From contig JAXHNJ010000002.1 of the NCBI GenBank assembly GCA_034520665.1, positions 352,660 to 416,659 on the forward strand: DNA of 64,000 nt, written 5' to 3'. Within the stretch, counting starts at the first letter, position 1. Each line of letters starts with the position of its first letter. Below the pieces are notes generated by a model. That model searched no databases, had not been told where the DNA came from, and saw nothing but the letters and a program-made list of their open reading frames with translations. Shown here in pieces: positions 22,149-62,106 of the stretch. Made by a program: the position numbers and the translations under genes. Source of the DNA: Patescibacteria group bacterium (GTDB taxonomy: Bacteria; Patescibacteriota; Patescibacteriia; JAXHNJ01).

Positions 22149-22348
22149 AACTACAACCTTACTAGCCGCCATAACTAAAACTAAATTCAATAAAAAAATT
22201 TGGTGACTCCTTTAGCGGAGCCACCAAAATCTGTCTACAAGTATAGAATATATTTTTCGGCTAAATATGTCAAGTTGTAAATCCACAAATTATCAACTTC
22301 TATTATAGTATGACCTTAAGCTCCGTCAAAGGACACAAGTTTTGCCCT

Positions 22349-26067: not shown

Positions 26068-26093
26068 TAAATTTAGCCCAGGTGGCGGAACTG
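25965..26093. repeat. Direct repeat copy A (~129 bp): 3' end of ORF 25333..26067 plus the first 18 nt of tRNA-Leu
   Basis: About 95% identical to 28009..28137. Confidence 0.85.
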
Positions 26094-26162
26094 GTAGACG
26101 CGCTAGGTTTAGGACCTAGTGGGAGTAATCCCGTGGAGGTTCAAGTCCTCTCCTGGGCACCA
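26076..26162 (+). tRNA. tRNA-Leu (anticodon TAG), class II with long variable arm, CCA encoded
   Basis: Cloverleaf: acceptor GCCCAGG/CCTGGGC; anticodon stem CTAGG/CCTAG with loop TTTAGGA; T-arm GGTTCAAGTCC; 3' ACCA. Confidence 0.9.
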
Positions 26163-30505: not shown

Positions 30506-30514
30506 ATTATAAAA

Positions 30515-32327: not shown

Positions 32328-32329
32328 AA

Positions 32330-33310
32330 TTATGATTGATCTTTCTTTACTGTATTATTTCTTTGATAATGTTTTATTTTTTCAAAATATATTATTTTTT
32401 CTTGAGTTCTTCTTACCTTATTAATCATATCAGCTACTAAACCAACAATAATTAGTAATAAACCGAAAATATTTAAGGCTAAGCCCATAAAGCCTAAAGT
32501 TTTATAGGGAAAAACTGCTCCTAAAATTAGTAATCTTATAAATATAAAAATATCAAAAATAAGACCAAGAATAAAAAAAATAATTCCGGTCCAGCCAAAA
32601 TATCTTAAAGGCTTATAATCAATAAGAGTTCTAAAAAAAGTATTTAATATTTGATAGCCATAACGCCAAAGATTATGGGCAATTTTTGATTGACCAAAAT
32701 CTCTTTCGCCCTTTACTTTAATAGGAACTTCTTTAATTAATAAATTTTTAAAAGCTAAATTAAGAATCGTTTCATGGGTGTAAGTATAACGCCCAAAAAG
32801 ATTAAGGTTCAGTAAGGCCTCTCTAGAATAAGCCCGAAAACCGCAGGAAACATCATAGAATTTTTTCTTTGTTGATAAACTGATTAATCGGCTAATTATA
32901 AAATTACCCCCTTTTTTTAGCCGCGGCATTCTAGGAATAATTTTTTTATTTATAAATCTTGAAGCAGTGACTAAAGCCTTTTTTTCCTCTATTATTGGTT
33001 TCACTAAATAAGGAATATCTCCGGCATTAAACTGACCATCAGCGTCAATATTAACCATTATATCTGCTTTTCTTTTTAAAGCTTCCTCTACTCCTCTTTG
33101 AAAAACTAAACTTAAGCCCTGATTTTCTAAAAAAGAAATAACTTCGGCTCCGGCTCTTAAAGCTTCCCTTTTTGTGGCGTCATCAGAGCCATCATCAATA
33201 ACTAAAACTTCTATATTATCAATTCCTTTAATTTCTTGGGGGATATCTTTTATAACCGACTTTATTGTCTTTTCTTCGTTATAGGCCGGCAGTAAAACTA
33301 ATAACTTCAT
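32330..33310 (-). CDS. Glycosyltransferase family 2, polyprenyl-phosphate sugar transferase-like (DPM1/ArnC/GtrB-like) with C-terminal TM helices
   Basis: LLPAYNEEKTI...VIDDGSDDAT...DADGQ (DXD region). Two C-terminal TM segments. Confidence 0.8.
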   Translation of the reverse strand: MKLLVLLPAYNEEKTIKSVIKDIPQEIKGIDNIEVLVIDDGSDDATKREALRAGAEVISFLENQGLSLVFQRGVEEALKRKADIMVNIDADGQFNAGDIPYLVKPIIEEKKALVTASRFINKKIIPRMPRLKKGGNFIISRLISLSTKKKFYDVSCGFRAYSREALLNLNLFGRYTYTHETILNLAFKNLLIKEVPIKVKGERDFGQSKIAHNLWRYGYQILNTFFRTLIDYKPLRYFGWTGIIFFILGLIFDIFIFIRLLILGAVFPYKTLGFMGLALNIFGLLLIIVGLVADMINKVRRTQEKIIYFEKIKHYQRNNTVKKDQS

Positions 33311-33350
33311 ATCTTTTATTTAATCATATAATTAATAATTATTAAAGAAA

Positions 33351-34892
33351 TTAATTTATTTTTATTTTATAAAAATAAAATCCATTTTTTTCAAATAGTA
33401 ATTTTAAATCTTTATTTTCTTTTATTTTATATAGATTTTTCAAATTTGGTCTAAGATATGGTATTTTTTCATTGTTAAAAATAAGATATTTTATTTCTCT
33501 GTTTCTAGCAAATTCAATTATATCTTCATACTCATTGCTTGGCAAAATATAATTTATTCCTTGAGCCCAATAAGCTATTATTCTTGCATTCGTTAATATT
33601 TTATGGCCAGAGCCATACTTTTCCTTAAAAAATTGACTCATTTCTTTTATTTCTGTATCTCTGAACAAGGAAAAAAATCTGAATTGATAACCATCTTCTA
33701 TAGCAATAACAAACTGAAAAGACAAAAAAACTAATAAAATACTCAATATAACTATCCTCTTCTTTTTAAAGGATAAACTTTGATATAATCTCACTATACC
33801 TACGGCCACAATCATTAATATAATTGGAGTTAGCGGAAAGTAATAGCGGTAATAGACTTTTCCTGAATAATATATAAAAAGGAAAAAGGGTATCCAGCTA
33901 CCTAAAAAATAAAGTTTGTGCAAAATATATTTTTTCTTTTTTGAAAAATAAAAAGCAAAAACTATAAAAATTATCTGAAAAATAAAGTAACAGATAACAT
34001 AGGCTATATTATGAGGTAAATTTCTGAAAAAATTATTAATATAAATAATTATATACGATTTTTTTGGTTTTTCCATTTCTAGCTGGTTACTATTATAATC
34101 TGTATTTTCTTCATTCAACCCAAAGAAAATGATATTTTTTTCAAAATAAGAACTTTTGCTAGAAGAAACCGCGTAATCCTGCTGACCGGTAATTACAAAC
34201 TGGCCTTTTTCTTTATATAAATAAATCAAATAAGGAGAAACAACCATAACCACACCAATTATTAATAAGGTTAAACTAATAAATAATTTCTTTAATCTAA
34301 TTCTTTTATAATAAATATAATTAATAAAAAGCCATAAGATTATAACCGGCAAAAAACTTAAACCAACAATTCTTACATAATAAGAAAAACCAATTAAAAT
34401 ACCTAAGATCAGATACCAAAAAGTATTTTTCTCTTTATTTAAAAGAAGCCAACTTAAAAGAACAATACTAATAAAGAGAAAAGTAAATAAAGCTTCGGTC
34501 CAGGCCGCACCAGAATACCAAATAACATAAGGGTTTAAAATAAATAAAATAATAGATAGAATAGCTATTTTAAAATTAAAAAGTTTTTTAGCCAGAAAAT
34601 AAATAATAATAATTGATAAAAAAGTACTAATTAAGGAAACAATCTGGCTGGCCAGTTCAATATTATTTAAATAAAAATTATAAACATAAATCATAAAAGG
34701 AAAACCAGGCTGTATCAAACTATTTAACCGGGTAGTAGTATTAATCTTTAAACTTTTATCTAGGTTTTCTGCTAATTTGAAATATAAGGCTGAGTCACTA
34801 CTAGAAACCACTGAAGAAGAAAAAGTAAAAAATAAAACAAGAGCTAATAACAATATACCTCCCACAAAATATATTTCTTTTTTTCTAGACAT
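33351..34892 (-). CDS. GT-C-fold membrane glycosyltransferase (ArnT/PMT-like; GT39/GT83-like), tandem paralog 1
   Basis: 513 aa with 11 or more TMs. N-terminal ...SDSALYFKLAENL... periplasmic-loop motif typical of polyprenyl-P-sugar-dependent GT-C enzymes. Confidence 0.55.
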   Translation of the reverse strand: MSRKKEIYFVGGILLLALVLFFTFSSSVVSSSDSALYFKLAENLDKSLKINTTTRLNSLIQPGFPFMIYVYNFYLNNIELASQIVSLISTFLSIIIIYFLAKKLFNFKIAILSIILFILNPYVIWYSGAAWTEALFTFLFISIVLLSWLLLNKEKNTFWYLILGILIGFSYYVRIVGLSFLPVIILWLFINYIYYKRIRLKKLFISLTLLIIGVVMVVSPYLIYLYKEKGQFVITGQQDYAVSSSKSSYFEKNIIFFGLNEENTDYNSNQLEMEKPKKSYIIIYINNFFRNLPHNIAYVICYFIFQIIFIVFAFYFSKKKKYILHKLYFLGSWIPFFLFIYYSGKVYYRYYFPLTPIILMIVAVGIVRLYQSLSFKKKRIVILSILLVFLSFQFVIAIEDGYQFRFFSLFRDTEIKEMSQFFKEKYGSGHKILTNARIIAYWAQGINYILPSNEYEDIIEFARNREIKYLIFNNEKIPYLRPNLKNLYKIKENKDLKLLFEKNGFYFYKIKIN

Positions 34893-35020
34893 TATTAAAG
34901 CTTTTTTAATTATTTTAAAATTTACCCCGCCCCATTGTTTTTTCTTCGTTATAGGCCGGCAGTAAAACTAATAACTTCATATCTTTTATTTAATCATATA
35001 ATTAATAATTATTAAAGAAA

Positions 35021-36565
35021 TTAATTTATTTTTATTTTATAAAAATAAAATCCATTTTTTTCAAATAGTAATTTTAAATCTTTATTTTCTTTTATTTTAT
35101 ATAGATTTTCTAATCTAGGCCTTATCCAAGAAATACGATTTTTATCAAAAATAAGATATTTTATTTCTCTGTTTCTAGCAAATTCAATTATATCTTCATA
35201 CTCATTGCTTGGCAAAATATAATTTATTCCTTGAGCCCAATAAGCTATTATTCTTGCATTCGTTAATATTTTATGGCCAGAGCCATACTTTTCCTTAAAA
35301 AATTGACTCATTTCTTTTATTTCTGTATCTCTGAACAAGGAAAAAAATCTGAATTGATAACCATCTTCTATAGCAATAACAAACTGAAAAGACAAAAAAA
35401 CTAATAAAATACTCAATATAACTATCCTCTTCTTTTTAAAGGATAAACTTTGATATAATCTCACTATACCTACGGCCACAATCATTAATATAATTGGAGT
35501 TAGCGGAAAGTAATAGCGGTAATAGACTTTTCCTGAATAATATATAAAAAGGAAAAAGGGTATCCAGCTACCTAAAAAATAAAGTTTGTGCAAAATATAT
35601 TTTTTCTTTTTTGAAAAATAAAAAGCAAAAACTATAAAAATTATCTGAAAAATAAAGTAACAGATAACATAGGCTATATTATGAGGTAAATTTCTGAAAA
35701 AATTATTAATATAAATAATTATATACGATTTTTTTGGTTTTTCCATTTCTAGCTGGTTACTATTATAATCTGTATTTTCTTCATTCAACCCAAAGAAAAT
35801 GATATTTTTTTCAAAATAAGAACTTTTGCTAGAAGAAACCGCGTAATCCTGCTGACCGGTAATTACAAACTGGCCTTTTTCTTTATATAAATAAATCAAA
35901 TAAGGAGAAACAACCATAACCACACCAATTATTAATAAGGTTAAACTAATAAATAATTTCTTTAATCTAATTCTTTTATAATAAATATAATTAATAAAAA
36001 GCCATAAGATTATAACCGGCAAAAAACTTAAACCAACAATTCTTACATAATAAGAAAAACCAATTAAAATACCTAAAATTAGATACCAAAAAGTATTTTT
36101 TTCTTTATTTAAAAGAAGCCAACTTAAAAAAACAATACTAATAAAGAGAAAAGTAAATAAAGCTTCGGTCCAGGCGGCACCAGAACACCAAATAACATAA
36201 GGGTTTAAAATAAATAAAATAATAGATAGAATAGCTATTTTAAAATTAAAAAGTTTTTTAGCCAGAAAATAAATAATTATTATTGATAAAAAAGTGCTAA
36301 TCAAGGAAACAAGCTGGCTGGCCAGTTCAATATTATTTAAATAAAAATTATAAACATAAATCATAAAGGAATAACCAGGTTGTACCAGGCTATGCAAACT
36401 AGTAGTAGTATTAATCTTTAAACTTTTATCTAGGTTTTCTGCTAATTTGAAATATAAGGCTGAGTCACTGGTAGAAACTACTGAGGAAGAAAAAGTAAAA
36501 AATAAAACAAGAGCTAATAACAATATACCTCCAAGAAAATATATTTCCTTTTTCTTTCCCATCAT
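35021..36565 (-). CDS. GT-C-fold membrane glycosyltransferase (ArnT/PMT-like), tandem paralog 2
   Basis: 514 aa. More than 95% identical to paralog 1, except for the N-terminal residues and a ~15-aa C-terminal patch (DKNRISWIRPRLENL vs NNEKIPYLRPNLKNL). Confidence 0.55.
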   Translation of the reverse strand: MMGKKKEIYFLGGILLLALVLFFTFSSSVVSTSDSALYFKLAENLDKSLKINTTTSLHSLVQPGYSFMIYVYNFYLNNIELASQLVSLISTFLSIIIIYFLAKKLFNFKIAILSIILFILNPYVIWCSGAAWTEALFTFLFISIVFLSWLLLNKEKNTFWYLILGILIGFSYYVRIVGLSFLPVIILWLFINYIYYKRIRLKKLFISLTLLIIGVVMVVSPYLIYLYKEKGQFVITGQQDYAVSSSKSSYFEKNIIFFGLNEENTDYNSNQLEMEKPKKSYIIIYINNFFRNLPHNIAYVICYFIFQIIFIVFAFYFSKKKKYILHKLYFLGSWIPFFLFIYYSGKVYYRYYFPLTPIILMIVAVGIVRLYQSLSFKKKRIVILSILLVFLSFQFVIAIEDGYQFRFFSLFRDTEIKEMSQFFKEKYGSGHKILTNARIIAYWAQGINYILPSNEYEDIIEFARNREIKYLIFDKNRISWIRPRLENLYKIKENKDLKLLFEKNGFYFYKIKIN

Positions 36566-36684
36566 TAAAACTTTTTTAATTATTTTTAAAATCTGTTCCT
36601 CTCTTTATAATAAATAATAATTGAAAAAAAGCAGTTAAGCAAGCCGTTTATCTCTTAAAATAAAAGATGATGGCTCTTTAAATT

Positions 36685-37098: not shown

Positions 37099-37126
37099 TT
37101 GACAAATCTCAAAAATAGGTTATAAT
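37099..37126 (+). promoter_or_regulatory. Consensus sigma-70 promoter (TTGACA - 16 nt - TATAAT) upstream of the 23S-5S rRNA unit
   Basis: Exact -35 and -10 hexamers about 255 nt upstream of the 23S 5' end. Confidence 0.55.
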
Positions 37127-39513
37127 AACCAATACAAGAGAAATAAGGAGTTATCCACAAAAATATGGAACAAAAAAACCTTAATCTTAAACAAAAAAGC
37201 GGCTAATTTGCGCCTAATTATTTTTTAAGCGTAAAAGTCGCTTGAAAGCGGCTTTTTTGTTTCTTACATTAACTTCTTTAATAAGAACTTTGACAATTAA
37301 ATAATGGTAACAATAAAGAGCATCTACTTAAAATCAACTAAAAAATTAACTTAAATTCATATTTTTAAGCGAGTAAATCAGGATCTAAAAAAGAGCATAT
37401 GGTGGATGCCTCGACATTAAAAGGCGAAGAAGGACGTAGCAGCCTGCGATAAGCCTCGGTCAGGTGGCAAGCAACCTTTGATCCGGGGATTTCCGAATGG
37501 GGAAACCCGTCTGTCTTTTTAAGGACAGTCATCTATGTCTGAATCTATAGGACATAAGAAGTGCACCTGGGGAATTGAAACATCTTAGTACCCAGTGGAA
37601 AAGAAAAAAAAGGGTTAGCTCATAGCTAATGACGGTTTTTGCCGTCATCTGCTATTTGCTAATATATTCCCAGAGTAGTGGCGAGCGAAATGGGAAAAGT
37701 CCAAACTTGTGAAGTTTTTCCGCTTTTGGCGGGAAAGGGGTCATAAGCCCTTATACTTTACGGGGGTAGTGAGATAATTACTTTTAAATCAGCTTATGAC
37801 TGATTGGGGATAGCGTATGTAGTAGACTTTCCTAAAGTTTATTAGGAAATACTATTACTATTTCCTAGCTAAATCACCTGGAAAGGTGAACCAAAGAAGG
37901 TGATAGTCCTGTAAGCAAAAGGAAATAAACTTCCTCGTGATTATTCTCGAGTACCACGAGACTCGTGAAATCCCGTGGGAATCTGGCATGACTATTTTGC
38001 CAAGACTAAATACTTTTAATGATCGATAGCGAACTAGTACCGTGAGGGAAAGGTGAAAAGCACCCCGGTGAGGGGAATGAAATAGTATCTGAAACCATAT
38101 GCTTACAAGCAGTCGGAGTCCCGCCTTTGGTGTGGATGACGGCGTGCCTATTGAAGAATGAGCCAACGACTTAGTTTTATACAGTTTTCGATTAAGCCCT
38201 TCAAGGGCGAAATCAAAGTGAAAGCAAGCGTGAAAACGCGACCATTAGTTAATTAGTGGTTAGTTATTTTATATAATTAATTCACTAATTTTCTAAAAGA
38301 TTGTATGAACTAGACCCGAAGCCAAGTGAGCTATCCATGGCCAGGATGAACTCTTGAGAAATCAAGGGGGAGGTCCGAACCCACTAGCCGTGCAACGCTA
38401 GGGGATGAGCTGTGGATAGAGGTGAAATGCTAATCGAACTTGGCAATAGCTGGTTCTCCTCGAAATAGCTTTAGGGCTAGCCTTATAAATACTTATATGG
38501 AGGTAGAGCACTGAATGGGTGCGGATGGCGTAAGCCTACCACATCCAACCAAACTCCGAATTCCATGTATTTAATTATAGGAGTCAGACCATGGGGGCTA
38601 AGCTCCATCGGTCAAAAGGGAAACAGCCCAGACCACCATCTAAGGTCCCTAAATTTAGGCTAAGTGTAAAGGCAGTATCGCAACTGAAACAACTAGGAGG
38701 TTGGCTTAGAAGCAGCCATCCTTTAAAGAAAGCGTAACAGCTCACTAGTCAAGTTACTTTGCGCCAAAAATTTATAGGGGCTCAAGCCTAATACCGAAGA
38801 TGTGGTCCCCCACTTATTTATAGGTGGGGGAGGTAGAGGAGCATTCCACGTTTACTGAAGTCAATTTGTTAAAATTGATGGAAAACGTGGAAGTGAGAAT
38901 GTTGGCATAAGTAGCAAAAATCAGGGTGAGAATCCCTGACACCGCAAGCTTAAGGTTTCCTGGGCAACGTGAATCGACCCAGGGTTAGTCGGTCCTAAGG
39001 CGAGGCCGAAAGGCGTAGTCGATGGACAGCTGGTTAATATTCCAGCACCGTCTATTTTGCTTGCAACTAATTGACGCATCCTCAAAGTCTGAGCGCATTT
39101 TGGCTATATGCGTTCCTTCACTTAATTTAAGTGGGGGAGAAGAAAAAACCTCCGGGTGGATTCGATTCAGGTGGAGCGGGTGCCAAGAAAAGATTAGCCG
39201 TGTCTAACTTAATAGATGACCGTACCAAAACCAACACAGGTGAGCGGGCAGTTAATCTGCTAAGGTGTACGAGAGAACCCTCGTTTAGGAACTCGGCAAA
39301 ACAGTGGCCGTAACTTCGGGATAAGGCCTTCCCCCACTTGCTTGCAAGTGTGGGGACGCAGTTAATGATCTCAAGCGACTGTTTATCAAAAACACAGGTC
39401 CCTGCTAAACCGTAAGGTGATGTATAGGGGCTGATGCCTGGCCAGTGTCAGAACGTTAAGGGGATAGGTGCAAGCCTTGAACTGAAGCGCTGATGAACGC
39501 CGGCGATAACTAT

Positions 39514-40250
39514 AAGTGACGATTGTAGTTATAAAATTTGGCTATATGCGGGAAACCCTCCTTCATTTGAAGTACTCGCCTTTTACTAAAAGGCAGTAAC
39601 AATCTTCAAAGGACATAATTGTCAGGAGGCAATCCGCAGGAAAGACTCTTGGTAAGAAAGGATTAAACTATGGTAAAAAATAAATGGTTAAAAAATGTAC
39701 CAATAAATATTGGTAATTATATTGCTGGATTTGTAGACGGTGAAGGAAGCTTCAATGTTTCATTAAGAAAAAGAAAAGATCATAAAATGAAATGGCAAGT
39801 TGTATTAACCTTTAATGTATCTCAAAAAGAAAGAGCTATATTGTCTTTACTTAAACGTTATTTAAGTTGTGGCAGACTACAAACTAGAAAAGATGGAGTA
39901 TCTTATTATGTAGTTTCAAATCCATTATCTATTAAAGAAAAAATTATTCCTTTTTTTAGTAGATTTCCCTTCTTATCACAAAGAAAAAGAAGAAACTTCT
40001 CAATTTTTAAAAGAATTACTAATTTAGTCATTAAAAAGGAGCACTTAAATAGCTCGGGACTAGAAAAAATAATTCAACTCAGAGAAAAATTAAATCCCGG
40101 ACGTGGAAGAAAAAGAAAATATTCATTAAAAGACTATAAACAAAACCAAGAGAATCCTCAGAGACTATACGCCAAACCGCGATCTTTTCGTAAAGAAAAA
40201 AGCGGATGAGATAGTCCGATCTCATAGGTAACTATGAGCTAACAATAAAG
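39514..40250 (+). mobile_element. Group I intron in 23S rRNA at E. coli-equivalent position ~L1917 (helix 69), carrying a LAGLIDADG ORF
   Basis: Exon junction reconstructs ...GGCGAUAACUAU|AAUCGUCCUAAGGUAGCG with a compensatory H69 stem. The 5' exon ends in U and the intron ends in G. A P1-like pairing exists between exon ATAACTAT and intron GTAGTTAT. Confidence 0.7.
39670..40209 (+). CDS. LAGLIDADG homing endonuclease (single-motif, homodimer type), intron-encoded
   Basis: NYIAGFVDGEGSF motif. 179 aa. Embedded in the 23S intron. Confidence 0.85.
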   Translation: MVKNKWLKNVPINIGNYIAGFVDGEGSFNVSLRKRKDHKMKWQVVLTFNVSQKERAILSLLKRYLSCGRLQTRKDGVSYYVVSNPLSIKEKIIPFFSRFPFLSQRKRRNFSIFKRITNLVIKKEHLNSSGLEKIIQLREKLNPGRGRKRKYSLKDYKQNQENPQRLYAKPRSFRKEKSG

Positions 40251-40254
40251 AATC

Positions 40255-40317
<63 letters not shown>

Positions 40318-40826
40318 GAGAACTCTCTCAACGAGGGACTCGGTGAAATTGCATTACGAGTAAAGATGCTCGTTACCCACGGCCGGACGAAAAGACCCCG
40401 TGAAGCTTTACTACAACTTGGCATTGAGTTAAGTTTGTGTTTGCTCAGTATAGGTGGGAGACTTTGAAGTCCCAATTTCGGTTGGGACTGAGTCGCCATG
40501 TGAAATACCACCCTAACGTAAATTTAGTTCTAATTTTTGACCATGAAACTGGTCAGGAAAACAGTGTCTGGTGGGTAGTTTGACTGGGGCGGTCGCCTCC
40601 CAAATTGTAACGGAGGCGCTTACAAAGGTTGGCTAGGCTGGGATGGAAATCCAGCCGATAGTGTAAAGGCATAAGCCAGCTTTACTGCAAGACCTACAAG
40701 TCGCGCAGTTACGAAAGTAGAACTTAGTGATCCGACTCTCGATTATAGGATCGGAGAAGCTCATCGGATAAAAGTTACTCCGGGGATAACAGGCTTATCG
40801 GTTCCAAGAGTTCATATCGACGAACC

Positions 40827-40867
<41 letters not shown>

Positions 40868-40898
40868 AAGAAGCTCCCAAGGGTTTGGCTGTTCGCCA

Positions 40899-40942
<44 letters not shown>

Positions 40943-41765
40943 AAAATATAAATAACGTTCTGTCTCTTTTCGTCCATAAAATTAAAATGATCGTGCTGTC
41001 TATAAATCTGGCTATATGCTGGAAACTCTGGCATCCTCAAATAAGGAGAATAGAGGATTGAAGAATCTCACACTACGTGTTATAATATACGTGAAAATGT
41101 GTTGAGTGCAGACAACCAGCAGGGAAGATTTATAGGGAAAAATATGTTAAATCCAAATTACATTTCTGGCTTTGTAGATGGAGAAGGCAGTTTTCATGTC
41201 GCCATTTACAAAGATAATCGTATGAAACATAATATAAAAATAATACCGGAATTTCATATTAGTCAACGAAAAGATAGTAAAATGATTCTGGAAAAAATAA
41301 AAGATTATCTTCAATGTGGTTATATCAAGAAAAATCATGCTAAAAATAAAAATGATTTGACATATGTTTATGTAGTTAGAAATCGAAAAGACCTTCTAGA
41401 AAAAATAATTCCTTTCTTTGAAAAATACACACTAAAAACAGTGAAGAAAAAAGACTATAACATATTCGCTAAAATAGTAGAACTTATGAATAATAATAGA
41501 CACAGTAAAAAAAGTGGACTTAGAAAAATTATTAAACTTTCTTACTCTATGAATAGAAAAGGTAAATACAGAAGATCAAAAATCTCCCTATAAAAACCCT
41601 CAGAGACTATACGCCGGACTCCAACTATAAAATGGAGAAGATATAGTCCGAACTCTATGGCGACATAGAGAGATAAGTAGAAATAACTTATCCCGTAACC
41701 ATAAACCCATTTTTGAAATTTGAATTTTGGAATTTGGAGTTTGTTGTTACGTAGTAACAATTCTG
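40943..41765 (+). mobile_element. Group I intron in 23S rRNA at E. coli-equivalent position ~L2593, carrying a LAGLIDADG ORF
   Basis: Exon junction reconstructs ...CGUCGUGAGACAGU|UCGGUCUCCUAUCCGCCGUGGGCG. The 5' exon ends in U and the intron ends in G. Shares a ~25-nt core (ATYTGGCTATATGCKGGAAACYCT) with intron 1. Confidence 0.7.
41099..41593 (+). CDS. LAGLIDADG homing endonuclease (single-motif), intron-encoded
   Basis: NYISGFVDGEGSF motif. 164 aa. Inside the second 23S intron. Confidence 0.85.
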   Translation: MLSADNQQGRFIGKNMLNPNYISGFVDGEGSFHVAIYKDNRMKHNIKIIPEFHISQRKDSKMILEKIKDYLQCGYIKKNHAKNKNDLTYVYVVRNRKDLLEKIIPFFEKYTLKTVKKKDYNIFAKIVELMNNNRHSKKSGLRKIIKLSYSMNRKGKYRRSKISL

Positions 41766-42211: not shown

Positions 42212-42329
42212 TCCTGGTGATACTAGCGACTGTGTTACACCCCTTTCCATTCCGAACAGGGCCGTTAAGACAGTCAGCGCCGATGATACTTGGGGTTTAT
42301 CCCTGAGGGAAAGTAGGTCATCGCCAGGA
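42212..42329 (+). rRNA. rrf: 5S ribosomal RNA
   Basis: Helix I CCUGGUGA/UCAUCGCCAGG. Conserved CCGAACAGGGCCGTTAAG and AGTAGGTCATCGCCAGG. An extended precursor stem GAGAGGTAGTA/ATTGCCTCTC flanks it. T-run terminator at 42341. Confidence 0.85.
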
Positions 42330-54884: not shown

Positions 54885-54943
54885 GTTTTACAAATCAGCC
54901 TAAATTTATTATAATATTAGAGAAGCTTAACCAAAAAAAACAA

Positions 54944-55819
54944 ATGCCAAAGATAACAAAAGCAGTCATACCAGCCGCTGGTTTAGGCAGTCGCTTTCTA
55001 CCAGTAACTAAAGCCATACCCAAAGAAATGCTGCCTATTGTTGATAAACCTACTATTCAATACGTAGTTGAAGAATTAGCCTCTTCTGGTATTAAAGATA
55101 TAATAATCGTCACTGACTCTTCTAAAACAGCTATTGAAGATCATTTTGATCATTTAGATTATTTAGAAGAAAAGTTAGCTAAACAGGGCAAAAAAGATAA
55201 GGCTAAACAAATCAAAAAAATTGCTGATTTAGGCAATTTTATTTTTATCCGTCAAAAAGGGCCTTATGGCAACGGTACGCCGGCTTTGTGTGCTGAACCA
55301 CTGGTCAAAAATGAGCCTTTTATTTATATCTGGGGTGATGAATTTATTCACGCTAACCCACCCCGAGTCAAACAAATGCTTGAAGTTTATAAAAAATATA
55401 AATGCTCGGTTATTTCTGCCATTAAGGTGGCTAAAAAAGAGGTTTCCCGCTACGGCGTTGCCAAAGTCAAACATATAGAAAAAAATATTCATCAAATAAA
55501 TGAAATCGTGGAAAAACCGCCTCTTGATAAAGCTCCCTCAAGATTAGCTACTCACGGAGCCTATTTATTGACTCCAACTATATTTAAATTTTTAAAAAAA
55601 CAAAAAATAGGTCAAGGAGGAGAACTTTGGCTAGTAGACGCTATTAATAAGCTAGCTCAACAAGAAAAAGTTCTGGCTTGTCTTATCAAAAAAGGCCGGT
55701 ACTACGACATTGGCAATAAACTCGGTTATATTAAAGCTAATATTGAATTTGGTTTGAAACATCCGGAAATTAAAAAAGATTTAAAAAAATACTTAAAAAA
55801 TATAAAAAGCAATGATTAG
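54944..55819 (+). CDS. galU: UTP--glucose-1-phosphate uridylyltransferase
   Basis: KAVIPAAGLGSRFLPVTKAIPKEMLPIVDKPTIQYVVEE is a near-consensus GalU N-terminus. Confidence 0.9.
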   Translation: MPKITKAVIPAAGLGSRFLPVTKAIPKEMLPIVDKPTIQYVVEELASSGIKDIIIVTDSSKTAIEDHFDHLDYLEEKLAKQGKKDKAKQIKKIADLGNFIFIRQKGPYGNGTPALCAEPLVKNEPFIYIWGDEFIHANPPRVKQMLEVYKKYKCSVISAIKVAKKEVSRYGVAKVKHIEKNIHQINEIVEKPPLDKAPSRLATHGAYLLTPTIFKFLKKQKIGQGGELWLVDAINKLAQQEKVLACLIKKGRYYDIGNKLGYIKANIEFGLKHPEIKKDLKKYLKNIKSND

Positions 55820-57215
55820 TAGAAAATATATAATTCTTGGTATAATCGTTTTAGCTATCCTTGTTCCTATCTTTATTGGCATTTTCTTGAAAGAAGAAGT
55901 AAAAATTCCCAAAAGTGTTACTTTAAAATATTGGATTGTTGAAGGCTCAGAAAAAGACTATCAAGATATTGTTAGCGCTTTTAAAAATTATCATCCCTAT
56001 GTCAAAGTAAGTTTTAGAAAAGTAAAACTGGAAGAATACGAAGACACTTTGATTCAAGCTTGGGCTCGTGATCAAGGTCCGGATATATTTGAGTTGCCTT
56101 CAACTTGGTTAAAAAAATATCAGGAATTCATCACTCCCGCACCGGCTGAAATAACTACCGCTTACTATGAAAATAAAAAAGAATTTTTTCGTAATACTGT
56201 AGAAATAAAATACCGCACAAAAAGCTCTCCCACTTTAGATAATATAAAAAATAATTATGTTGATATAATTTATGATGATGTAGTTTTAAGCAACAATCGG
56301 GGAAAAAGACAAATATACGCCCTGCCTTATAGTATTGATACGTTGGCTGTCTATTATAATAAAGATTTATTAAATAATGCTTATATAGCTCAACCGGCTA
56401 AAACTTGGAATGAACTAGTTCAGCAATCTTCAAAGCTAAGTCTCTACGACAATCAAAATAATATTCTCCAGTCCAGTATAGCTTTAGGTCTTTCTTCAAA
56501 TATTGAGTATCATTATGGAATTCTTTCACTACTAATGATACAAAACGGAGTCAGTATGATTTCTCCCAGCGGAGAAGAAGTTAGTTTTAATAGAAGCCGT
56601 GAAACCACCAATTTAGGAGCTTTGGCTTTAGATTTTTACACCAGTTTTACCAATATAAATAAAGAAACTTATTCCTGGAATTCATCACAACCGGAAAGTT
56701 TAGATAACTTTACTAGTGGTAAATCAGCTTACTATATTGGTACCCTAGCTGATAAATCAGTAATTGATAAAACAGCTAATTTAAATTATGGTGTAACTGA
56801 AATGTTTCATATAAATCCATCTGGTACAGACCGAGTTTTAAATAAAGCCGGTAATCCCGTACAAGTTAATTTTGGCAAATACTGGGTCCATACTGTTGCT
56901 AAAAAAACCAAGTCTCTTCAGGAAGCCTGGGATTTAGTCCAGTTTATAGCTCGGGAAAAAAGAAATCGGCAATACCTAGAAAAAACTGGGAAAATTTCCC
57001 CCCTAAGAAGTATTCTTAATATACAAAAAGAAGATCCTGATTTAGGGCTTTGGGCCCGCCAAGCTTTAACCGCCAAAAATTGGTATACTGGTTATGATGC
57101 TTCAGCTACAAAAAATTATTTTGCTGAAATGATTGAGACTGTAGCTTTAAAAAATAAAAGCAGCAGCCAAGCATTAAATGAAGCTGCTGAAAAAATTGAA
57201 AGGACTTTAGAATGA
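55812..57215 (+). CDS. TM-anchored extracellular solute-binding protein (ABC-type sugar-binding family 1-like), orphan
   Basis: N-terminal TM. SBP_bac_1-like central region (ALPYSIDTLAVYYNKDLL). No permease or ATPase genes adjacent. Stop overlaps the next start (ATGA). Confidence 0.55.
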   Translation: MISRKYIILGIIVLAILVPIFIGIFLKEEVKIPKSVTLKYWIVEGSEKDYQDIVSAFKNYHPYVKVSFRKVKLEEYEDTLIQAWARDQGPDIFELPSTWLKKYQEFITPAPAEITTAYYENKKEFFRNTVEIKYRTKSSPTLDNIKNNYVDIIYDDVVLSNNRGKRQIYALPYSIDTLAVYYNKDLLNNAYIAQPAKTWNELVQQSSKLSLYDNQNNILQSSIALGLSSNIEYHYGILSLLMIQNGVSMISPSGEEVSFNRSRETTNLGALALDFYTSFTNINKETYSWNSSQPESLDNFTSGKSAYYIGTLADKSVIDKTANLNYGVTEMFHINPSGTDRVLNKAGNPVQVNFGKYWVHTVAKKTKSLQEAWDLVQFIAREKRNRQYLEKTGKISPLRSILNIQKEDPDLGLWARQALTAKNWYTGYDASATKNYFAEMIETVALKNKSSSQALNEAAEKIERTLE

Positions 57216-58768
57216 AAAATAATTACAAAATTTTATTTTTAATAATAGGTTTAACTTTTTTAATAACACCTCTCAAGTCAATAGCCTCTCCTTTACCGGA
57301 TATAATGCCTGATTGTGACATTACCGTTTATGAGGTTGAAGAACACGGCACTCATAATTTTGATGACGCTGAAGCCTTTAAATATAATAAAGCAGAAGAA
57401 GGAGGAGAAAAAGAAAGTGATTACGAAAGAGTCTGTAATGGCGACTGTATTGACGCTCGTAATTATGTTCAAATAGGTGACAAAGGGGAAAGCGCTCATG
57501 ATAAATACGGGGACGTCACCCATGTTATTGATTATAATCCCTGCGGTTTTGATGATTTTATCACCCTATTAATTAATGCCTTTCAATTCGGCTTAACCAT
57601 GCTGGCTGTGGTGGTTTTATTCTTCTTTATTTGGGGCGGTTTTGGCTTTATTATTGCCGGCGGTCGGACTGAAAAAATCCAGGAAGCAAAAAAGACTATT
57701 AAAGGCGCTTTTGTCGGTATGTTAATAGTATTATGTGCCTGGATTACAGTAAATTTTTATATTTTTGCTTTTACTGATGATCCTCAAAGCAAAATATTCG
57801 GTGAATTTTGGTGGGGTGGCAGTGAAGAATGCCACGAAGATTTTCCTTTAGAATGCGACAAAAATAATCTTCATCTTGGCTGTGGCGGACCCAAAGATTC
57901 AAGTACTGATACTTATATAAAAGACTTACAAAACGCACTTAATAATTTAGAGGGTTGTGAATGTGGCCCAGTAGATGGTTGTTACGGTGATAAAACAGCT
58001 GACTGTGTGATTGAATTTCAGTTAAGTAATCAGGATGAGATTGGTAATTTTGAAGTAGGAGTAGTGGGAGAAAATACCTGGAACGCTATAAAAACAGGCT
58101 CTGGCAGTTGTCAGGTTGATTATGACACCGAGAAAACTGAAGAGGCTGAATATTGTTGTGGACAAATATCTTTAAAACCCGGTCCTATATGTCTACCTAC
58201 TTGGGAAGAAAATGGCTGTGATAAATACGGCGAAAACTATATGTTATTGGAGAAGAAAAAATGTTCAGAACTCGTATTTTGTCAAGAGGGTTGTTGTATA
58301 CCTGATGATTTAAATAAAGATTGTTATAACTGTACAGGTAACGAATGCCTTCCTTATGGTGATACTTTCAATCATGAGGCAAAATGCAAGGAGGAAAGTA
58401 ATTCTGAAGATTGTCTTTGGCATATTTGTCGCGAAAATTCTACTTCAGTTAATAACTGTTATATCCAAAGAGGGGGTTGTCTCCCTGATGTATCTACTAA
58501 TGAAGTAGCTTGGAGTAAAGAAGCGGCTCAAGAAAAAATGTCAACTATGGATGTATGTAATATGGGAACCTGTACTATACCTTTTACTGATGCCAGTGGT
58601 AATACTTACTATGATTGCTATTGGGAATCCCGCTCAAGATGTGAAGAAATAGAAGGTGAATTTTATTATAAAATTCCTACACCTAGCTCAACAGACGATA
58701 CTGATAGTGACGGTTATGCCAATCTAAATGGTGGGTCGCTGCCAGATATTGAGTGCCGAGTAGATTAA
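57212..58768 (+). CDS. Cys-rich surface protein with an embedded VirB2/TrbC-like (T4SS-pilin-like) two-helix module (518 aa)
   Basis: Signal peptide. Residues ~115-185 (LTMLAVVVLFFFIWGGFGFIIAGGRTEKIQEAKKTIKGAFVGMLIVLCAWITV) are homologous to the three downstream small proteins. Flanked by extracellular domains with 40 or more Cys (CxxC, CC, CxC patterns). Confidence 0.55.
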   Translation: MKNNYKILFLIIGLTFLITPLKSIASPLPDIMPDCDITVYEVEEHGTHNFDDAEAFKYNKAEEGGEKESDYERVCNGDCIDARNYVQIGDKGESAHDKYGDVTHVIDYNPCGFDDFITLLINAFQFGLTMLAVVVLFFFIWGGFGFIIAGGRTEKIQEAKKTIKGAFVGMLIVLCAWITVNFYIFAFTDDPQSKIFGEFWWGGSEECHEDFPLECDKNNLHLGCGGPKDSSTDTYIKDLQNALNNLEGCECGPVDGCYGDKTADCVIEFQLSNQDEIGNFEVGVVGENTWNAIKTGSGSCQVDYDTEKTEEAEYCCGQISLKPGPICLPTWEENGCDKYGENYMLLEKKKCSELVFCQEGCCIPDDLNKDCYNCTGNECLPYGDTFNHEAKCKEESNSEDCLWHICRENSTSVNNCYIQRGGCLPDVSTNEVAWSKEAAQEKMSTMDVCNMGTCTIPFTDASGNTYYDCYWESRSRCEEIEGEFYYKIPTPSSTDDTDSDGYANLNGGSLPDIECRVD

Positions 58769-58786
58769 TATTAATTATATAAATAT

Positions 58787-59134
58787 ATGAAAAAAAAGAT
58801 TATAACCTTATTACTCATTATCAATTTTTTCTTTCCCTTAAGTGCTTTAGCCAATGGCACTTCCAATGTATTACCCAACCCTATGGCCTGTACTAACTTG
58901 CTTTGTCTTTTTATTCAGGTAATCAGAATTCTTTTAGGGGCTGTTGGCCTTTTTGCTTTATTTGTTTTTATATGGGGCGGTTTTTTAATGTTGACTTCGG
59001 CCGGCAACGCTGAAAAAGTTAAACAAGCTAAAGATACTTTGCTATGGGCTTCTTTAGGTATTGTTGTTATCTTAGGCAGTTGGGTGATTATTAGATTTTT
59101 AATGGAAACTGTATTGAGTAGTTCTTTTACCTAA
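58787..59134 (+). CDS. VirB2/TrbC-like T4SS pilin-like protein (115 aa), divergent paralog
   Basis: Signal peptide. Helix-1 LLGAVGLFALFVFIWGGFLMLTSAGNAEKVKQAKDTLLWASLGIVVILGSWVII. Confidence 0.55.
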   Translation: MKKKIITLLLIINFFFPLSALANGTSNVLPNPMACTNLLCLFIQVIRILLGAVGLFALFVFIWGGFLMLTSAGNAEKVKQAKDTLLWASLGIVVILGSWVIIRFLMETVLSSSFT

Positions 59135-59210
59135 AATAAAATTTGACAAAAATCTTATTTTAGGATATAATAGAACAAACATAAAAATTATTATTATTAA
59201 AATTAAGAAA

Positions 59211-59570
59211 ATGAAAAAAATATCTCTAATCTTAGCTCTATTTCTACTAATTTTGCCAACGACTGCTTCAGCTGTTGTGACCAGTTATAGTATTGAAGAC
59301 TTTGGTAGTTCTGTTGGATTAGGCACAGCTGATCTTGTAGACACCGCCATTAACGTTATCCAATGGGTCCTTGGTATTTTAGCTTTAGTAGCTGTAGTTA
59401 TGATTATTTATGGTGGCATTCTTTGGATGACGGCTGCTGGTAATGAAGAAAAGATTGGAAAAGCCAAGAAAGTTATTTCGGCCGCTGTTATTGGTTTAAT
59501 TATTGTCTTGATGGCTTGGGCTATTGTCATCTTTGTGGCCGGTACTACTGCTAATGTAGTTTCTGAATAA
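59211..59570 (+). CDS. VirB2/TrbC-like T4SS pilin-like protein (119 aa)
   Basis: Signal peptide (cleavage ~ASA). IQWVLGILALVAVVMIIYGGILWMTAAGNEEKIGKAKKVISAAVIGLIIVLMAWAIVIFVAG resembles the VirB2 loop ...ISWMFG.... Confidence 0.6.
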   Translation: MKKISLILALFLLILPTTASAVVTSYSIEDFGSSVGLGTADLVDTAINVIQWVLGILALVAVVMIIYGGILWMTAAGNEEKIGKAKKVISAAVIGLIIVLMAWAIVIFVAGTTANVVSE

Positions 59571-59617
59571 TATCTGTATAATAATTATTAAAATATTTTT
59601 AGAAAGGAGGTGAAATA

Positions 59618-59974
59618 ATGAAAAAATTAGCTCTAATTACTTCTTCTGTTTTGTTACTAGCTCTTCCAGTTACTGCTTTAGCTCAAACCTCATACTCCAT
59701 TGGAGATATTGGTGGTGAAGTCGGTTTAGGCACAGCTGATCTTAGAGATACAGTAGTTAATATTATTCAATGGGTGCTTGGTATTTTAGCTTTAGTAGCT
59801 GTAGTTATGATTATTATCGGTGGCTTTCAATGGATGACCGCTGCTGGTAATGAAGAAAGGATTGAAAAAGCTAAGAAAGTTATCTCAGCCGCTGTTATTG
59901 GTTTAATTATTGTCTTGCTGGCCTGGGCTATCGTTATCTTTGTGGCTGGTACTACTTCTAACGTTACTCAATAA
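59618..59974 (+). CDS. VirB2/TrbC-like T4SS pilin-like protein (118 aa), close paralog of 59211..59570
   Basis: Same architecture. Mature region is >75% identical to the preceding gene. Strong SD (AGGAGG). Confidence 0.6.
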   Translation: MKKLALITSSVLLLALPVTALAQTSYSIGDIGGEVGLGTADLRDTVVNIIQWVLGILALVAVVMIIIGGFQWMTAAGNEERIEKAKKVISAAVIGLIIVLLAWAIVIFVAGTTSNVTQ

Positions 59975-59996: not shown

Positions 59997-60028
59997 AAAC
60001 ATTCCCGCTTTCAAAAGGCGGGATGTTT
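59997..60028 (+). terminator. Hairpin AAACAUUCCCGC-UUUCAAAAG-GCGGGAUGUUU after the pilin-like cluster
   Basis: 11-12-bp stem with a U/A-rich 3' flank. Confidence 0.4.
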
Positions 60029-60084: not shown

Positions 60085-62106
60085 TTGCTTTATCCAATGA
60101 ATAAAGAAGAAAAAATTAATAATTATTTAAATTATTTAAACGACTATTTACAAAGAAACAGTAAAAAAATTTTAATAGTTATAATTTTAATATACGTTAT
60201 TATATTTTCTGTTTTATGTTTATACAAATATCTTACCTATAACTATATTGGTATAGATTTGGCTATTTTTAACCAGGTTTTTTATAATTCTAGCCTCGGT
60301 GACTTTTTTGAACTAACTATTCATCCCCATCTTTATCTAGGTGATCACTTCGCTTTAATCATCCCCTTGTTAATACCTTTTTATTTTTTACTTAGAAGTC
60401 CAGTCACTTTATTAATTATGCAAACACTTTTTTTGGCTTTAGGAGCTTGGCCACTATATTTAATCGCCCGGCAGAAATTAAGCAAAAATTTATCTCTTTT
60501 TATAAGCTTTTTTTACCTAAGCCATTTGTTTGTTCATAATATAAATACTTATGAATTTCATATTCTTTCTTTGGCTATACCCTTATTATTTTTCTTATTT
60601 TATTTTTATAAAAAAGGAAACTTTGCTCTTTACACACTTTTTCTGGTTCTCTGTCTGAGTATCAGGGAAGATCTGGCTTTAGTTATCTTTATGTTTGGCT
60701 TATTAGCCCTTATCGATAGAAAAAAATGGCACTGGAGTCTCTTACCTATAATTTTAAGTATCGGCTGGTTTATTTTTGCCATGAAAATGACTGGGGAAAT
60801 ATCTGGTTACGGGCAATATAAATTTGTTCGTTATTATGGCTGGTTAGGTGATGACATTAAATCAATTATTTTAGGCGCTATTAATCATCCCTGGGTTGTT
60901 ATAAAACATATTTTTTCCTTTAGTAATATTTCATTTTTAGTCGGACTATTTCTTCCTTTCCTTTTTTTACCGTTATTAAAGCCAAAATATATTTTGCCCA
61001 GCACTTTAATAATTTTACAAATACTCTTTTTAACAGCCGCTGGGCCACTAGCTCTGGAAATTCATTATGTAGCCCTTATTATCCCTTTTTTATTTATTAG
61101 CCTAGTTTATTCTATAAAAAAAATATATAAAAAAGACTCAAAATACAAAATAACAAGGATATTGAATAGAAATAAAGAAATAATTATTGTTATTCTAATC
61201 TTAGCCAGTCTTTATTCTAGTTTAGTTATGGGACCATTATTTTATCTTAGTCAAGATACTCTTAATTACGCCGAGGCAAAAAAAGATATTAATATTAGAA
61301 AATATTTTACCAGTCAAATTCCCGAAAAGTCAGCCGTAGCTACTGGTTTTCATTTCTTACCCCAATTATCTTCCCGTAAAAAAATATATTCTCTTCATTA
61401 TCAATATTTAGGCAAAAAGCAATACTCTAATATTGATTACTCCATTCCATCCGATGTAGAATATCTTCTTTTTGACATGAATGATTTTTTGTATTATCAA
61501 TTCCTTTATCAGGAAAATGATGAAAATAATATTCCCGGAGCTAGCCGTATTCGTAAACTTATAAAAGAAAATGATTTTCATCTTACAAATTATATTGACA
61601 AATACTTCTTATATACAAAAAAGGGTAAAAGCGTGCCTTTACTTTACGAAAAAGAGGTGGATTTACCAAATCAAATTAATTCTATCAATAAAAAATTTGA
61701 AGCTATAGAATTAAAGGGCTATACTACTGAGAAAATAAAAAAATATTCAATAAAAGATTATAACTATGAAATATTGCCCTTAACTTTATACTGGCAATGC
61801 CTTAATGAAATAGAATTTGATTATCAAATTAAGATTCACTTTACCGGTGAAAACTCTTCCTTTGAAGAAAGTTATCCTTTATCGGCTCTTTACCCCACCC
61901 ATGATTGGAAAAAAAATGAAATAATTAAAGTAAATTATCAGATTCTTATGCCTGAAGCATTCAAAAATATTAAATACCAAATAGGTTTATCTGTTTATCA
62001 TGCTCAAGGCAACATGGGTTTAAATAAAAGTAAGATTTTTCGCCCTCAAATCAGCCAAATAGACAAATTTGGGAGGATTAATCTTTTAGGGGTAAATCAA
62101 AATTAG
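60085..62106 (+). CDS. DUF2079-family polytopic membrane protein (GT-C-like) with C-terminal soluble domain
   Basis: Pattern ...DLAIFNQVFYNSSLGDFF...HLYLGDHFALIIPLLIPFYF...LLIMQTLFLALGAWPLY... is typical of DUF2079. Confidence 0.55.
   Translation: MLYPMNKEEKINNYLNYLNDYLQRNSKKILIVIILIYVIIFSVLCLYKYLTYNYIGIDLAIFNQVFYNSSLGDFFELTIHPHLYLGDHFALIIPLLIPFYFLLRSPVTLLIMQTLFLALGAWPLYLIARQKLSKNLSLFISFFYLSHLFVHNINTYEFHILSLAIPLLFFLFYFYKKGNFALYTLFLVLCLSIREDLALVIFMFGLLALIDRKKWHWSLLPIILSIGWFIFAMKMTGEISGYGQYKFVRYYGWLGDDIKSIILGAINHPWVVIKHIFSFSNISFLVGLFLPFLFLPLLKPKYILPSTLIILQILFLTAAGPLALEIHYVALIIPFLFISLVYSIKKIYKKDSKYKITRILNRNKEIIIVILILASLYSSLVMGPLFYLSQDTLNYAEAKKDINIRKYFTSQIPEKSAVATGFHFLPQLSSRKKIYSLHYQYLGKKQYSNIDYSIPSDVEYLLFDMNDFLYYQFLYQENDENNIPGASRIRKLIKENDFHLTNYIDKYFLYTKKGKSVPLLYEKEVDLPNQINSINKKFEAIELKGYTTEKIKKYSIKDYNYEILPLTLYWQCLNEIEFDYQIKIHFTGENSSFEESYPLSALYPTHDWKKNEIIKVNYQILMPEAFKNIKYQIGLSVYHAQGNMGLNKSKIFRPQISQIDKFGRINLLGVNQN

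Follow-up and report, generated by a model that had tools for sequence, protein, structure and literature searches.

A gene at positions 57212 to 58768 of a 64-kb stretch of DNA from a Patescibacteria group bacterium (64,000 nucleotides of contig JAXHNJ010000002.1, assembly GCA_034520665.1; the whole stretch is called the window here) encodes a 518-amino-acid (518-aa) protein in which a pilin-like hairpin is joined to a predicted peptidoglycan (PG)-binding domain and to cysteine-bearing ectodomains. This protein is referred to below as the fusion. The open reading frame (ORF), which an earlier note made from the DNA letters had picked out, holds up on the plus strand. Every ORF was intact under genetic code table 11, and an alternative genetic code was rejected for this reason. 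As the note had proposed, the product begins with a signal peptide; it is of the Sec type, spans residues 1 to 25, and ends at an SIA/SP cleavage motif. The hairpin is flanked by an 85-aa N-terminal ectodomain and a 328-aa C-terminal ectodomain. The ATG of the fusion overlaps the TGA of an upstream 467-aa solute-binding protein (SBP) ORF (GAATGA), again in agreement with the note, and an AAAGGA Shine-Dalgarno-like site lies about 8 nucleotides (nt) upstream of the ATG, within the 3' end of the SBP ORF. The tight coupling claimed for the two genes extends to eight other fusion-bearing loci, at which the spacing between them is -4 to +4 nt. The coordinates of the features at the locus are given in Table 1.

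Hydropathy and sequence place two strongly hydrophobic helices at about residues 116 to 152 and 162 to 189, joined by the basic loop GGRTEKIQEAKKTIKG, and an AlphaFold2 model of the fusion contains helices at residues 113 to 148 and 153 to 187 (block-mean predicted local distance difference test [pLDDT] scores of 75 to 92 over residues 111 to 180). The two-helix pilin-like module that had been proposed is therefore complete within the fusion. Residues 114 to 181 match the T4SS_pilin family PF18895 (33.7 bits; cutoff, 26.6) over profile positions 2 to 69 of 71. When the hairpin was compared with the three small paralogues encoded downstream (pilins 1 to 3) by BLASTP with composition-based statistics, the identities were 32 to 41%, with E values of about 1e-15. 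The possibility, raised with the original proposal, that the hairpin resembles the small paralogues in composition only was rejected, since this similarity persists under composition correction and the PF18895 match is above its cutoff. By sequence, the hairpin is a conjugation-type (VirB2/TrbC-like) pilin module and not a type IV pilin; the label "pilin" is retained in the former sense and dropped in the latter. A type IV pilin was rejected because the signal is of the signal peptidase I type and because the protein has no class III (prepilin peptidase) signal, no N_methyl motif, and no PF07963 match. The fusion itself falls below the threshold of the NCBIfam model NF045849, and a hairpin profile searched against PDB sequences gave no significant match, the top one being OSTC at chance level (E 0.21). 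At 518 aa, the fusion also departs from the small single-module pilin format, in which the precursor has roughly 70 to 160 aa.

The region after the hairpin had been described as Cys-rich. This description overlooked a PG_binding_1 domain at residues 231 to 300: residues 236 to 293 match PF01471 (24.3 bits; cutoff, 23), and the region has a three-helix fold like that of solved PG-binding domains. The domain is the membrane-proximal part of the ectodomain, about 45 residues beyond helix 2. No catalytic wall-hydrolase domain was detectable in the fusion by family and fold searches, and a wall hydrolase was rejected as its identity on these grounds. The cysteine enrichment of the fusion is extreme (6.6%, compared with a background of 0.88% in the window's 44 other ORFs; binomial P = 5e-19), although the count is 34 instead of "40 or more": 4 are in the N-terminal ectodomain, 1 is in helix 2, and 29 follow the hairpin. 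The cysteine motifs listed previously were all found, namely, CEC (residue 249), CC (residues 315 and 361), CYNC (residue 371), and GCGGP (residues 223 to 227). The term "cysteine-knot-like" does not apply. The N-terminal ectodomain has merely 4 cysteines in about 86 residues, the Cys-rich parts of the fusion match no known family and no fold, and cystine-knot domains were rejected because no knot family was matched.

Structural statements are based on an AlphaFold2 model calculated from a 55-sequence family alignment (mean pLDDT, 75.6); an earlier model calculated from 9 sequences was too poor (pLDDT, 48.8) and was dropped. Block means are 88 to 96 over residues 211 to 300. The N-terminal ectodomain is modeled as beta-rich (pLDDT of 66 to 89 over residues 71 to 110), and the extra C-terminal domain is modeled with fair confidence (80 to 92 over residues 400 to 490); values fall below 50 over residues 358 to 389. 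A Foldseek search of the whole model against the PDB returned nothing significant (best E = 1), and no family match or fold match was obtained for the extra C-terminal domain. In the predicted topology and in the model, both ectodomains face outward, and the approximately 33 cysteines located there can form disulfides; as 33 is an odd number, one of them may stay free or take part in an intermolecular bond.

Relatives of the fusion were sought on two scales. An index of 5.8 billion proteins gave eight only; the exact 518-aa protein was absent from these results, in which the best match had 49% identity. The SBP neighbor is present at 100% identity in NCBI, and the 518-aa gene was called on a Logan contig (L021). 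A profile search covered 1.84 billion cluster representatives (50% identity); among the top 150, about 55 make up the fusion family (alignment A4). Its members share one plan, consisting of a signal peptide, an N-terminal ectodomain, the hairpin, a Cys linker, the PG-binding domain, and a variable tail; PF18895 was found in 51 of the 55 and PF01471 in 46 (best, 2.9e-18). The family is thus not rare; the window protein is the largest among the 55 aligned representatives.

Eight cysteines are near-invariant, each being present in at least 52 of the 55 members: C35 (54 members), C111 (all 55), C207, C215, and C224 (52 to 55), C249, C257, and C300. These are enough for four core disulfides. In the hairpin, G142, G143, G151, G169, and K160 are invariant or nearly so across the family, and in the nine closest relatives E154 and G165 are invariant too. 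Compared with the window protein, identity declines outward from the membrane, with mean values of 47% for the hairpin, 37% for the PG-binding domain, 33% for the linker, 21% for the Cys modules, 26% for the C-terminal domain, and 25% for the N-terminal domain. Since the hairpin is the most constrained part of the fusion, it is probably more than a membrane anchor. Beyond C300, family members have a tail of 0 to 218 residues with 0 to 22 cysteines, and that of the window protein is the longest of the set. Short members stop right after the PG-binding domain, and many have no tail at all. Only the six members with the longest sequences (the window protein, P0001-3, P0009, and P0010) have the extra C-terminal domain (the last roughly 110 residues). 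The tail alignment (A5) has the consensus GCCVP..C..C..Y..C..C twice, and many tails show the pattern GCC[VI]..C..C..aromatic..C..C twice. Duplication of this six-Cys module within the window fusion is unsupported (pairwise score of 34 versus 30 +/- 6 for shuffles), the pattern being one recognized only by eye in A5. A profile of the Cys-rich tail (A5) searched against 5.8 billion proteins gave nothing at E values up to 1e-3.

Table 1. Features of the fusion gene, its product, and the surrounding cassette (window coordinates)
Feature	Coordinates	Strand	Remarks
Promoter-like site P1, TTTACA-17-TATAAT	54887..54915	+	Upstream of galU; 11/12 consensus positions
GalU, UTP-glucose-1-phosphate uridylyltransferase	54944..55819	+	TIGR01099, 325.4 bits (cutoff, 326.8); 8-nt overlap with SBP start
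Membrane-anchored family-1 sugar SBP, 467 aa	55812..57215	+	PDB sugar SBP matches; N-terminal transmembrane helix, no lipobox
Fusion ORF	57212..58768	+	518 aa
Fusion, Sec signal peptide, residues 1-25	57212..57286	+	h-region at residues 6-28; SIA/SP cleavage motif (...LKSIA/SP)
Fusion, N-terminal ectodomain, residues 26-110	57287..57541	+	Bounded by conserved C35 and C111 (first residue of hairpin part)
Fusion, VirB2-like helical hairpin, residues 111-190	57542..57781	+	PF18895 match; BLASTP to paralogues; best-conserved part
Fusion, Cys-containing linker, residues 191-230	57782..57901	+	C207, C215, C224 (GCGGP)
Fusion, PG_binding_1 domain, residues 231-300	57902..58111	+	C249, C257, C300
Fusion, variable Cys-rich region, residues 301-407	58112..58432	+	Two "CC...C...C...C...C" modules; lineage-specific insert
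Fusion, extra C-terminal domain, residues 408-518, plus stop codon	58433..58768	+	Longest forms only
Small pilin 1, 115 aa, Cys-pair class	58787..59134	+	PF18895; NPxxC-x4-C before helix 1
Promoter-like site P2, perfect TTGACA-17-TATAAT	59143..59171	+	Between pilin 1 and pilin 2
Small pilin 2, 119 aa, Cys-free, strongly conserved	59211..59570	+	PF18895, 49.5 bits
Small pilin 3, 118 aa, Cys-free, strongly conserved	59618..59974	+	PF18895, 54.6 bits
Terminator-like hairpin	60003..60023	+	After pilin 3; 9-bp stem, 5 GC pairs, T-rich tail
DUF2079 polytopic membrane protein	60085..62106	+	PF09852 at 3.2e-66
Polytopic membrane protein, 553 aa	62078..63739	-	Convergent; no family match; conserved neighbor

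The fusion gene has a fixed place in a cassette with the order GalU, family-1 SBP, fusion, three to four small pilins, DUF2079, and a convergent membrane protein of about 545 aa. This cassette recurs in 11 related loci (L001-L008, L010, L012, and L018), over which fusion identity falls from 57% to 25%, and which include Kerfeldbacteria or Kerfeldbacteria-like metagenome-assembled genomes (MAGs) and the complete Nomurabacteria genome CP060223.1. The SBP-fusion junction stays within -4 to +4 nt throughout. In most related loci, galU orthologues match PF00483 at the same position; the DUF2079 gene keeps its position in L001-L006, L008, and L018, and a gene for a 533- to 553-aa membrane protein occupies the same position and strand in L001, L002, L003, L005, L008, and L018. 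Genes for GT-C-type glycosyltransferases (PMT_2, GT87/MptA_B) come next in five of the 11 cassette loci. The window SBP matches 33 sugar SBPs in the PDB at E values below 0.01 (best, 3uor at 1.5e-10); its orthologues match PF01547/PF13416, and the window SBP itself gave no Pfam match at E 0.1. Neither the window nor any of the related loci examined yielded an ABC permease or ATPase gene, so the earlier description of this family-1 sugar SBP as an orphan is apt. As judged from gene order and homology, the fusion is the first pilin member of an SBP-plus-pilin cassette conserved across Patescibacteria. SBP homologues also lie directly upstream of VirB2-like pilin arrays that have no PG-binding fusion, in Portnoybacteria L019 (8001-10964) and in locus L020 (8001-16423), where several pilins are enlarged (139 to 223 aa). 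The linkage of SBPs to pilins seems general in Patescibacteria.

The small pilins of the cassette are of two classes. Pilin 1 has a cysteine pair, and its orthologues in seven loci are 43 to 75% identical, with exactly two cysteines each, in the same place; where pilin 1 has NPxxC-x4-C, the fusion carries NPC. Pilins 2 and 3 are Cys-free and 77% identical to each other, and pilins of this class, called bulk pilins below, number two to three per cassette (with a pilin 4 in some loci). Pilin 2 is 55 to 80% identical to its orthologues in distant loci and pilin 3 is 61 to 93% identical across loci. The bulk pilins are 61 to 93% identical across loci where the fusion is 25 to 57% and the SBP 39 to 74% identical. 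Pilin 3 matches NF045849, "pilin-like conjugal transfer protein" (44.1 bits; cutoff, 40), and aligns at 32% identity (E 2e-12) with a small pilin from the bona fide type IV secretion system (T4SS) locus L017; the L017 pilin also matches TrbC/VirB2 (PF04956) above threshold. The Cys-free pilins (window, 59211-59974; L001-L008 and L018) usually end in GTT(A/S)NVT, a Thr-rich sequence that often holds an N-x-T sequon. This sequon could be a glycosylation site for the adjacent GT-C-type enzymes.

Two promoter-like sites divide the cassette. P1 is also found upstream of galU in L001, L002, L004, and L010. P2 is the sole perfect sigma-70 consensus with a 17-nt spacer in the window, where 0.01 would be expected by chance; the other perfect consensus of the window, TTGACA-16-TATAAT at 37099-37126, lies about 250 nt upstream of the 23S rRNA gene. 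Between pilins 1 and 2, P2 occurs with 0 mismatches in L001, L002, L003, L008, L009, and L010 (L011 duplicates L002) and with 1 mismatch in L004-L007, for a total of ten other distinct loci. Together with the terminator-like hairpin after pilin 3, these sites suggest two transcription units, with GalU, SBP, fusion, and pilin 1 transcribed at a moderate level and pilins 2 and 3 at a very high level. Such strong expression of pilins 2 and 3 would agree with Paceibacteria metatranscriptomes, where the T4SS pilin genes belong to the most strongly expressed of all genes without a known function (PMC10936435).

VirB2-like pilin arrays are known in Patescibacteria (PMC12102498, PMC12857230, PMC10633639), and one array is essential in Southlakia. 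A survey of Patescibacteria T4SSs counted 441 VirB2 arrays, in which identity averages 25% and reaches a maximum of 54% (PMC12102498). The window array resembles the published ones, including that of the "Ca. Southlakia epibionticum" T4SS locus, in hairpin family (PF18895), tandem paralogues, and Sec signal peptides (PMC12102498, PMC10633639). However, it does not stand beside virB4, virB6, and virB3 but in a cassette running from GalU and the SBP to DUF2079 and GT-C genes. Bulk pilins of the window type are 61 to 93% conserved across lineages, in contrast to the 25% average of published arrays, and the first member of the window array has about 330 extra extracytoplasmic residues that include a PG-binding domain. 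In PMC12102498, the term "solute-binding" is absent from the main text, and PG_binding, SBP_bac, and DUF2079 are absent from two supplementary files. In the searchable literature, we found no description of a hairpin, a PG-binding domain, and Cys-rich modules in one protein, of a fixed place for such a fusion in an SBP-linked cassette without VirB4, or of pilins divided among a single wall-binding member, a single Cys-pair member, and strongly conserved bulk members.

Pilin hairpins are found as modules of larger proteins in the T4SS loci of other Patescibacteria as well. Locus L017 (7800-13141) encodes a pilin, a pilin::TrbL/VirB6 fusion, PrgI/VirB3, VirB4, and an M23 peptidase, and L015 and L016 have the same ORF layout (a comparison of layout only, with no Pfam scan). 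As in the window fusion, the PF18895 hairpin is there a module (an N-terminal one) of a larger protein and a free small pilin adjoins. The partner differs: in L015-L017 it is a polytopic VirB6/TrbL channel with PrgI/VirB3, VirB4, and M23 peptidase as neighbors, whereas in the window it is a soluble, disulfide-rich, predicted wall-binding ectodomain with the SBP and glycan-related genes as neighbors. Compared with wall enzymes that carry PG_binding_1 (the phiKZ gp144 endolysin, 3bkh; SleB, 6tci; an L,D-transpeptidase, 4lpq), the window domain is without a catalytic domain, has the family-specific cysteines C249 and C257 with C224 and C300 flanking, and is fused to a membrane hairpin. The base pilins of Gram-positive sortase pili and the minor or tip pilins of type IV pili offer a functional analogy only, that of a specialized low-copy subunit that either joins a filament, itself made of abundant subunits, to the wall or displays a binding domain. 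Their families and assembly are unrelated, and the fusion has no LPXTG motif, class III signal, or N_methyl motif. The small paralogues also match the "Mbov_0395 family pilin-like conjugal transfer protein" (NF045849) of Mycoplasma integrative and conjugative elements (ICEs), which represents conjugation-associated hairpins of monoderms; however, the window contains no ICE or conjugation genes, and the fusion itself misses this model.

Taken together, these data give about an even chance that the fusion is a low-abundance, wall-tethered minor pilin of an SBP-linked pilin assembly. By sequence and model, both helices would lie in the cytoplasmic membrane after Sec export and cleavage of the signal peptide, with the Lys/Arg-rich loop inside, and outward from helix 2 come the short Cys linker, the PG_binding_1 domain, and the lineage-variable Cys-rich tail. 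The mechanism that we infer starts from a set of four pilins, in which the fusion would be the wall-tethered member made in few copies, apparently cotranscribed with GalU, the sugar-binding SBP, and the Cys-pair minor pilin from a moderate promoter, and pilins 2 and 3 would be the bulk subunits, made from a full-consensus promoter like that of the 23S rRNA. The conserved hairpin would allow the fusion to pack against the bulk pilins, and the variable tail would project to the surface as a contact or specificity element. Lying only about 45 residues past helix 2, the PG-binding domain would engage the peptidoglycan of the cell itself, where it would anchor the assembly or nucleate it. Conjugative pili whose structures have been solved have their pilin termini on the filament exterior, so a terminal ectodomain is compatible with incorporation into a filament. 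The assembly could be either an extended VirB2-type pilus built by a T4SS encoded elsewhere or a membrane-proximal complex. The earlier note had suggested a tip adhesin or a minor pilin that displays a binding domain. A minor pilin with a binding domain fits these data, but the PG-binding domain lies next to the membrane, a position that favors attachment to the wall of the cell itself no less than a role at the tip.

Several points weigh against a wall-tethered minor pilin. No gene for VirB4, VirB6, VirB3, or VirD4 was found in the 64-kb window or within 8 to 10 kb of the cassette in the loci examined, and true Patescibacteria T4SS loci look unlike the cassette. The predicted PG-binding domain might bind the cell's own peptidoglycan or that of a host. 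The predicted promoter strengths and transcription units are derived from consensus matches alone. Finally, the linkage with an SBP, with GalU, and with GT-C-type enzymes runs deep and could be a sign of a role other than that of a pilus.

Such a role is possible but unlikely. The hairpin proteins, the SBP, and the GT-C-type membrane enzymes encoded nearby would together make up a membrane-embedded envelope complex, in which the SBP would capture a sugar or glycan and the hairpins would serve as scaffold, channel, or acceptor subunits, and the fusion would tie this complex to peptidoglycan; in a variant, the small pilins would be glycosylated by DUF2079 or PMT-like enzymes with UDP-glucose supplied by GalU. 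The gene order from GalU to GT-C is kept at 25% to 57% fusion identity, from Kerfeldbacteria-like MAGs to Nomurabacteria (with PMT_2/GT87 in some loci only), and SBP homologues stand directly upstream of pilin arrays even without the fusion. The conservation of the bulk pilins, far above the 25% average of published arrays, and their usual GTT(A/S)NVT C termini, Thr-rich and often with the N-x-T sequon, would suit such a complex too. However, the hairpins belong to a family that is tied to T4SS loci, no permease, ATPase, or flippase was identified in the cassette, and the sole hint of an oligosaccharyltransferase subunit is the chance-level OSTC match (E 0.21).

We consider it rather improbable that the fusion is a tip adhesin, which would be incorporated first and sit at the distal end of a VirB2-type filament, where its PG-binding domain and tail would bind the wall of a host or prey cell and take over the part that VirB5 has in diderm systems. 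The tail is strongly variable in length and sequence, as would be expected of a host-contact surface, and the exterior position of pilin termini in conjugative pili would also allow such a display. Published work also speaks in favor of a tip role: VirB5 is absent from monoderm-type systems, and VirB2 pili have been proposed for Patescibacteria (PMC12857230); in Paceibacteria that parasitize archaea, proteins with PG-binding domains reach high expression, and a part in host attachment has been suggested for them (PMC10936435). Against this, the PG-binding domain is membrane-proximal, with only about 45 residues between it and helix 2, a geometry suited to the wall of the cell itself. Short family members stop at this domain and have no distal tail, T4SS machinery was not found nearby, and some Patescibacteria hosts are archaea that have no peptidoglycan (PMC10936435). 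Of the strongly expressed proteins with a "PG-binding domain" in Kuroda et al. 2024, considered as possible members of the fusion family, the one that was traced has 692 aa and no pilin annotation.

A more far-reaching idea, to which we give little credence, is that the cassette encodes a previously undescribed Patescibacteria envelope organelle made of VirB2-like hairpins and independent of, or loosely coupled to, VirB4 machinery. In it, highly expressed and possibly glycosylated pilins would form a filament or channel anchored in the wall and would act together with a dedicated sugar-binding protein, and the organelle could serve to capture or conduct host-derived carbohydrate. It is very unlikely that the fusion is a wall-remodeling analogue of VirB1, which would use its PG-binding domain to target an unrecognized lytic function of the Cys-rich tail and so open the wall to the pilin assembly, because many family members are tailless, even though most VirB2-bearing Patescibacteria have no recognizable VirB1 (PMC12102498).

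VirB2-like pilins are unexpected in monoderms, they are essential in the sole genetically tested Patescibacterium, and their role is an open question (PMC10633639, PMC12857230). The cassette offers three handles on this question: a pilin paralogue that bears a recognizable, predicted peptidoglycan ligand-binding domain; a conserved set of one wall-binding, one Cys-pair, and several bulk pilins, served by separate promoters; and a deep association with an orphan sugar-binding protein and with glycan enzymes instead of VirB4. Soluble ectodomains make each of these biochemically approachable without cultivation of the organism. Together, the handles could tell a wall-anchored filament from an uptake device or another role of the pilins.

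The second most Cys-rich protein of the window (16 cysteines, 3.4%) is encoded at 26190-27512 and has a signal peptide, a Cys-dense N-terminal region, an Asn/Ser/Thr-rich linker, and no Pfam match. This ORF was listed from a GTG at 26082, which overlaps a tRNA-Leu gene (26076-26162); the true start is therefore probably the downstream Met (MTNMKYLF...). A low-GC island at 30000-36600 (0.23 to 0.26, compared with about 0.35) encodes GT1 and GT2 glycosyltransferases, a methyltransferase, an LPG_synthase_TM protein, and two PMT_2 GT-C glycosyltransferases, and it may be a horizontally acquired surface-glycan cluster. A 756-aa protein encoded on the minus strand (19405-21675) has PKD and lamin-tail (LTD) regions together with OB-fold-like ones; it is a candidate for a surface protein or for an extracellular protein that binds nucleic acid.

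The rRNA genes of the window have features of their own. The 16S rRNA gene is not in the window, and the rRNA genes therefore appear to be unlinked. The 23S rRNA match at 37379-40997 is 3,619 nt long, compared with a 2,925-nt model, and contains an ORF for a LAGLIDADG homing endonuclease (39670-40209). Since the oversized match holds this ORF, the 23S rRNA gene probably carries an intron. A second LAGLIDADG ORF (41099-41593) lies just beyond the annotated 3' end of the 23S rRNA gene and before the 5S rRNA gene (42213-42329). About 15 kb from the 23S rRNA gene, an ORF at 21741-22190 on the minus strand matches the "23S rRNA-intervening sequence protein" family PF05635.

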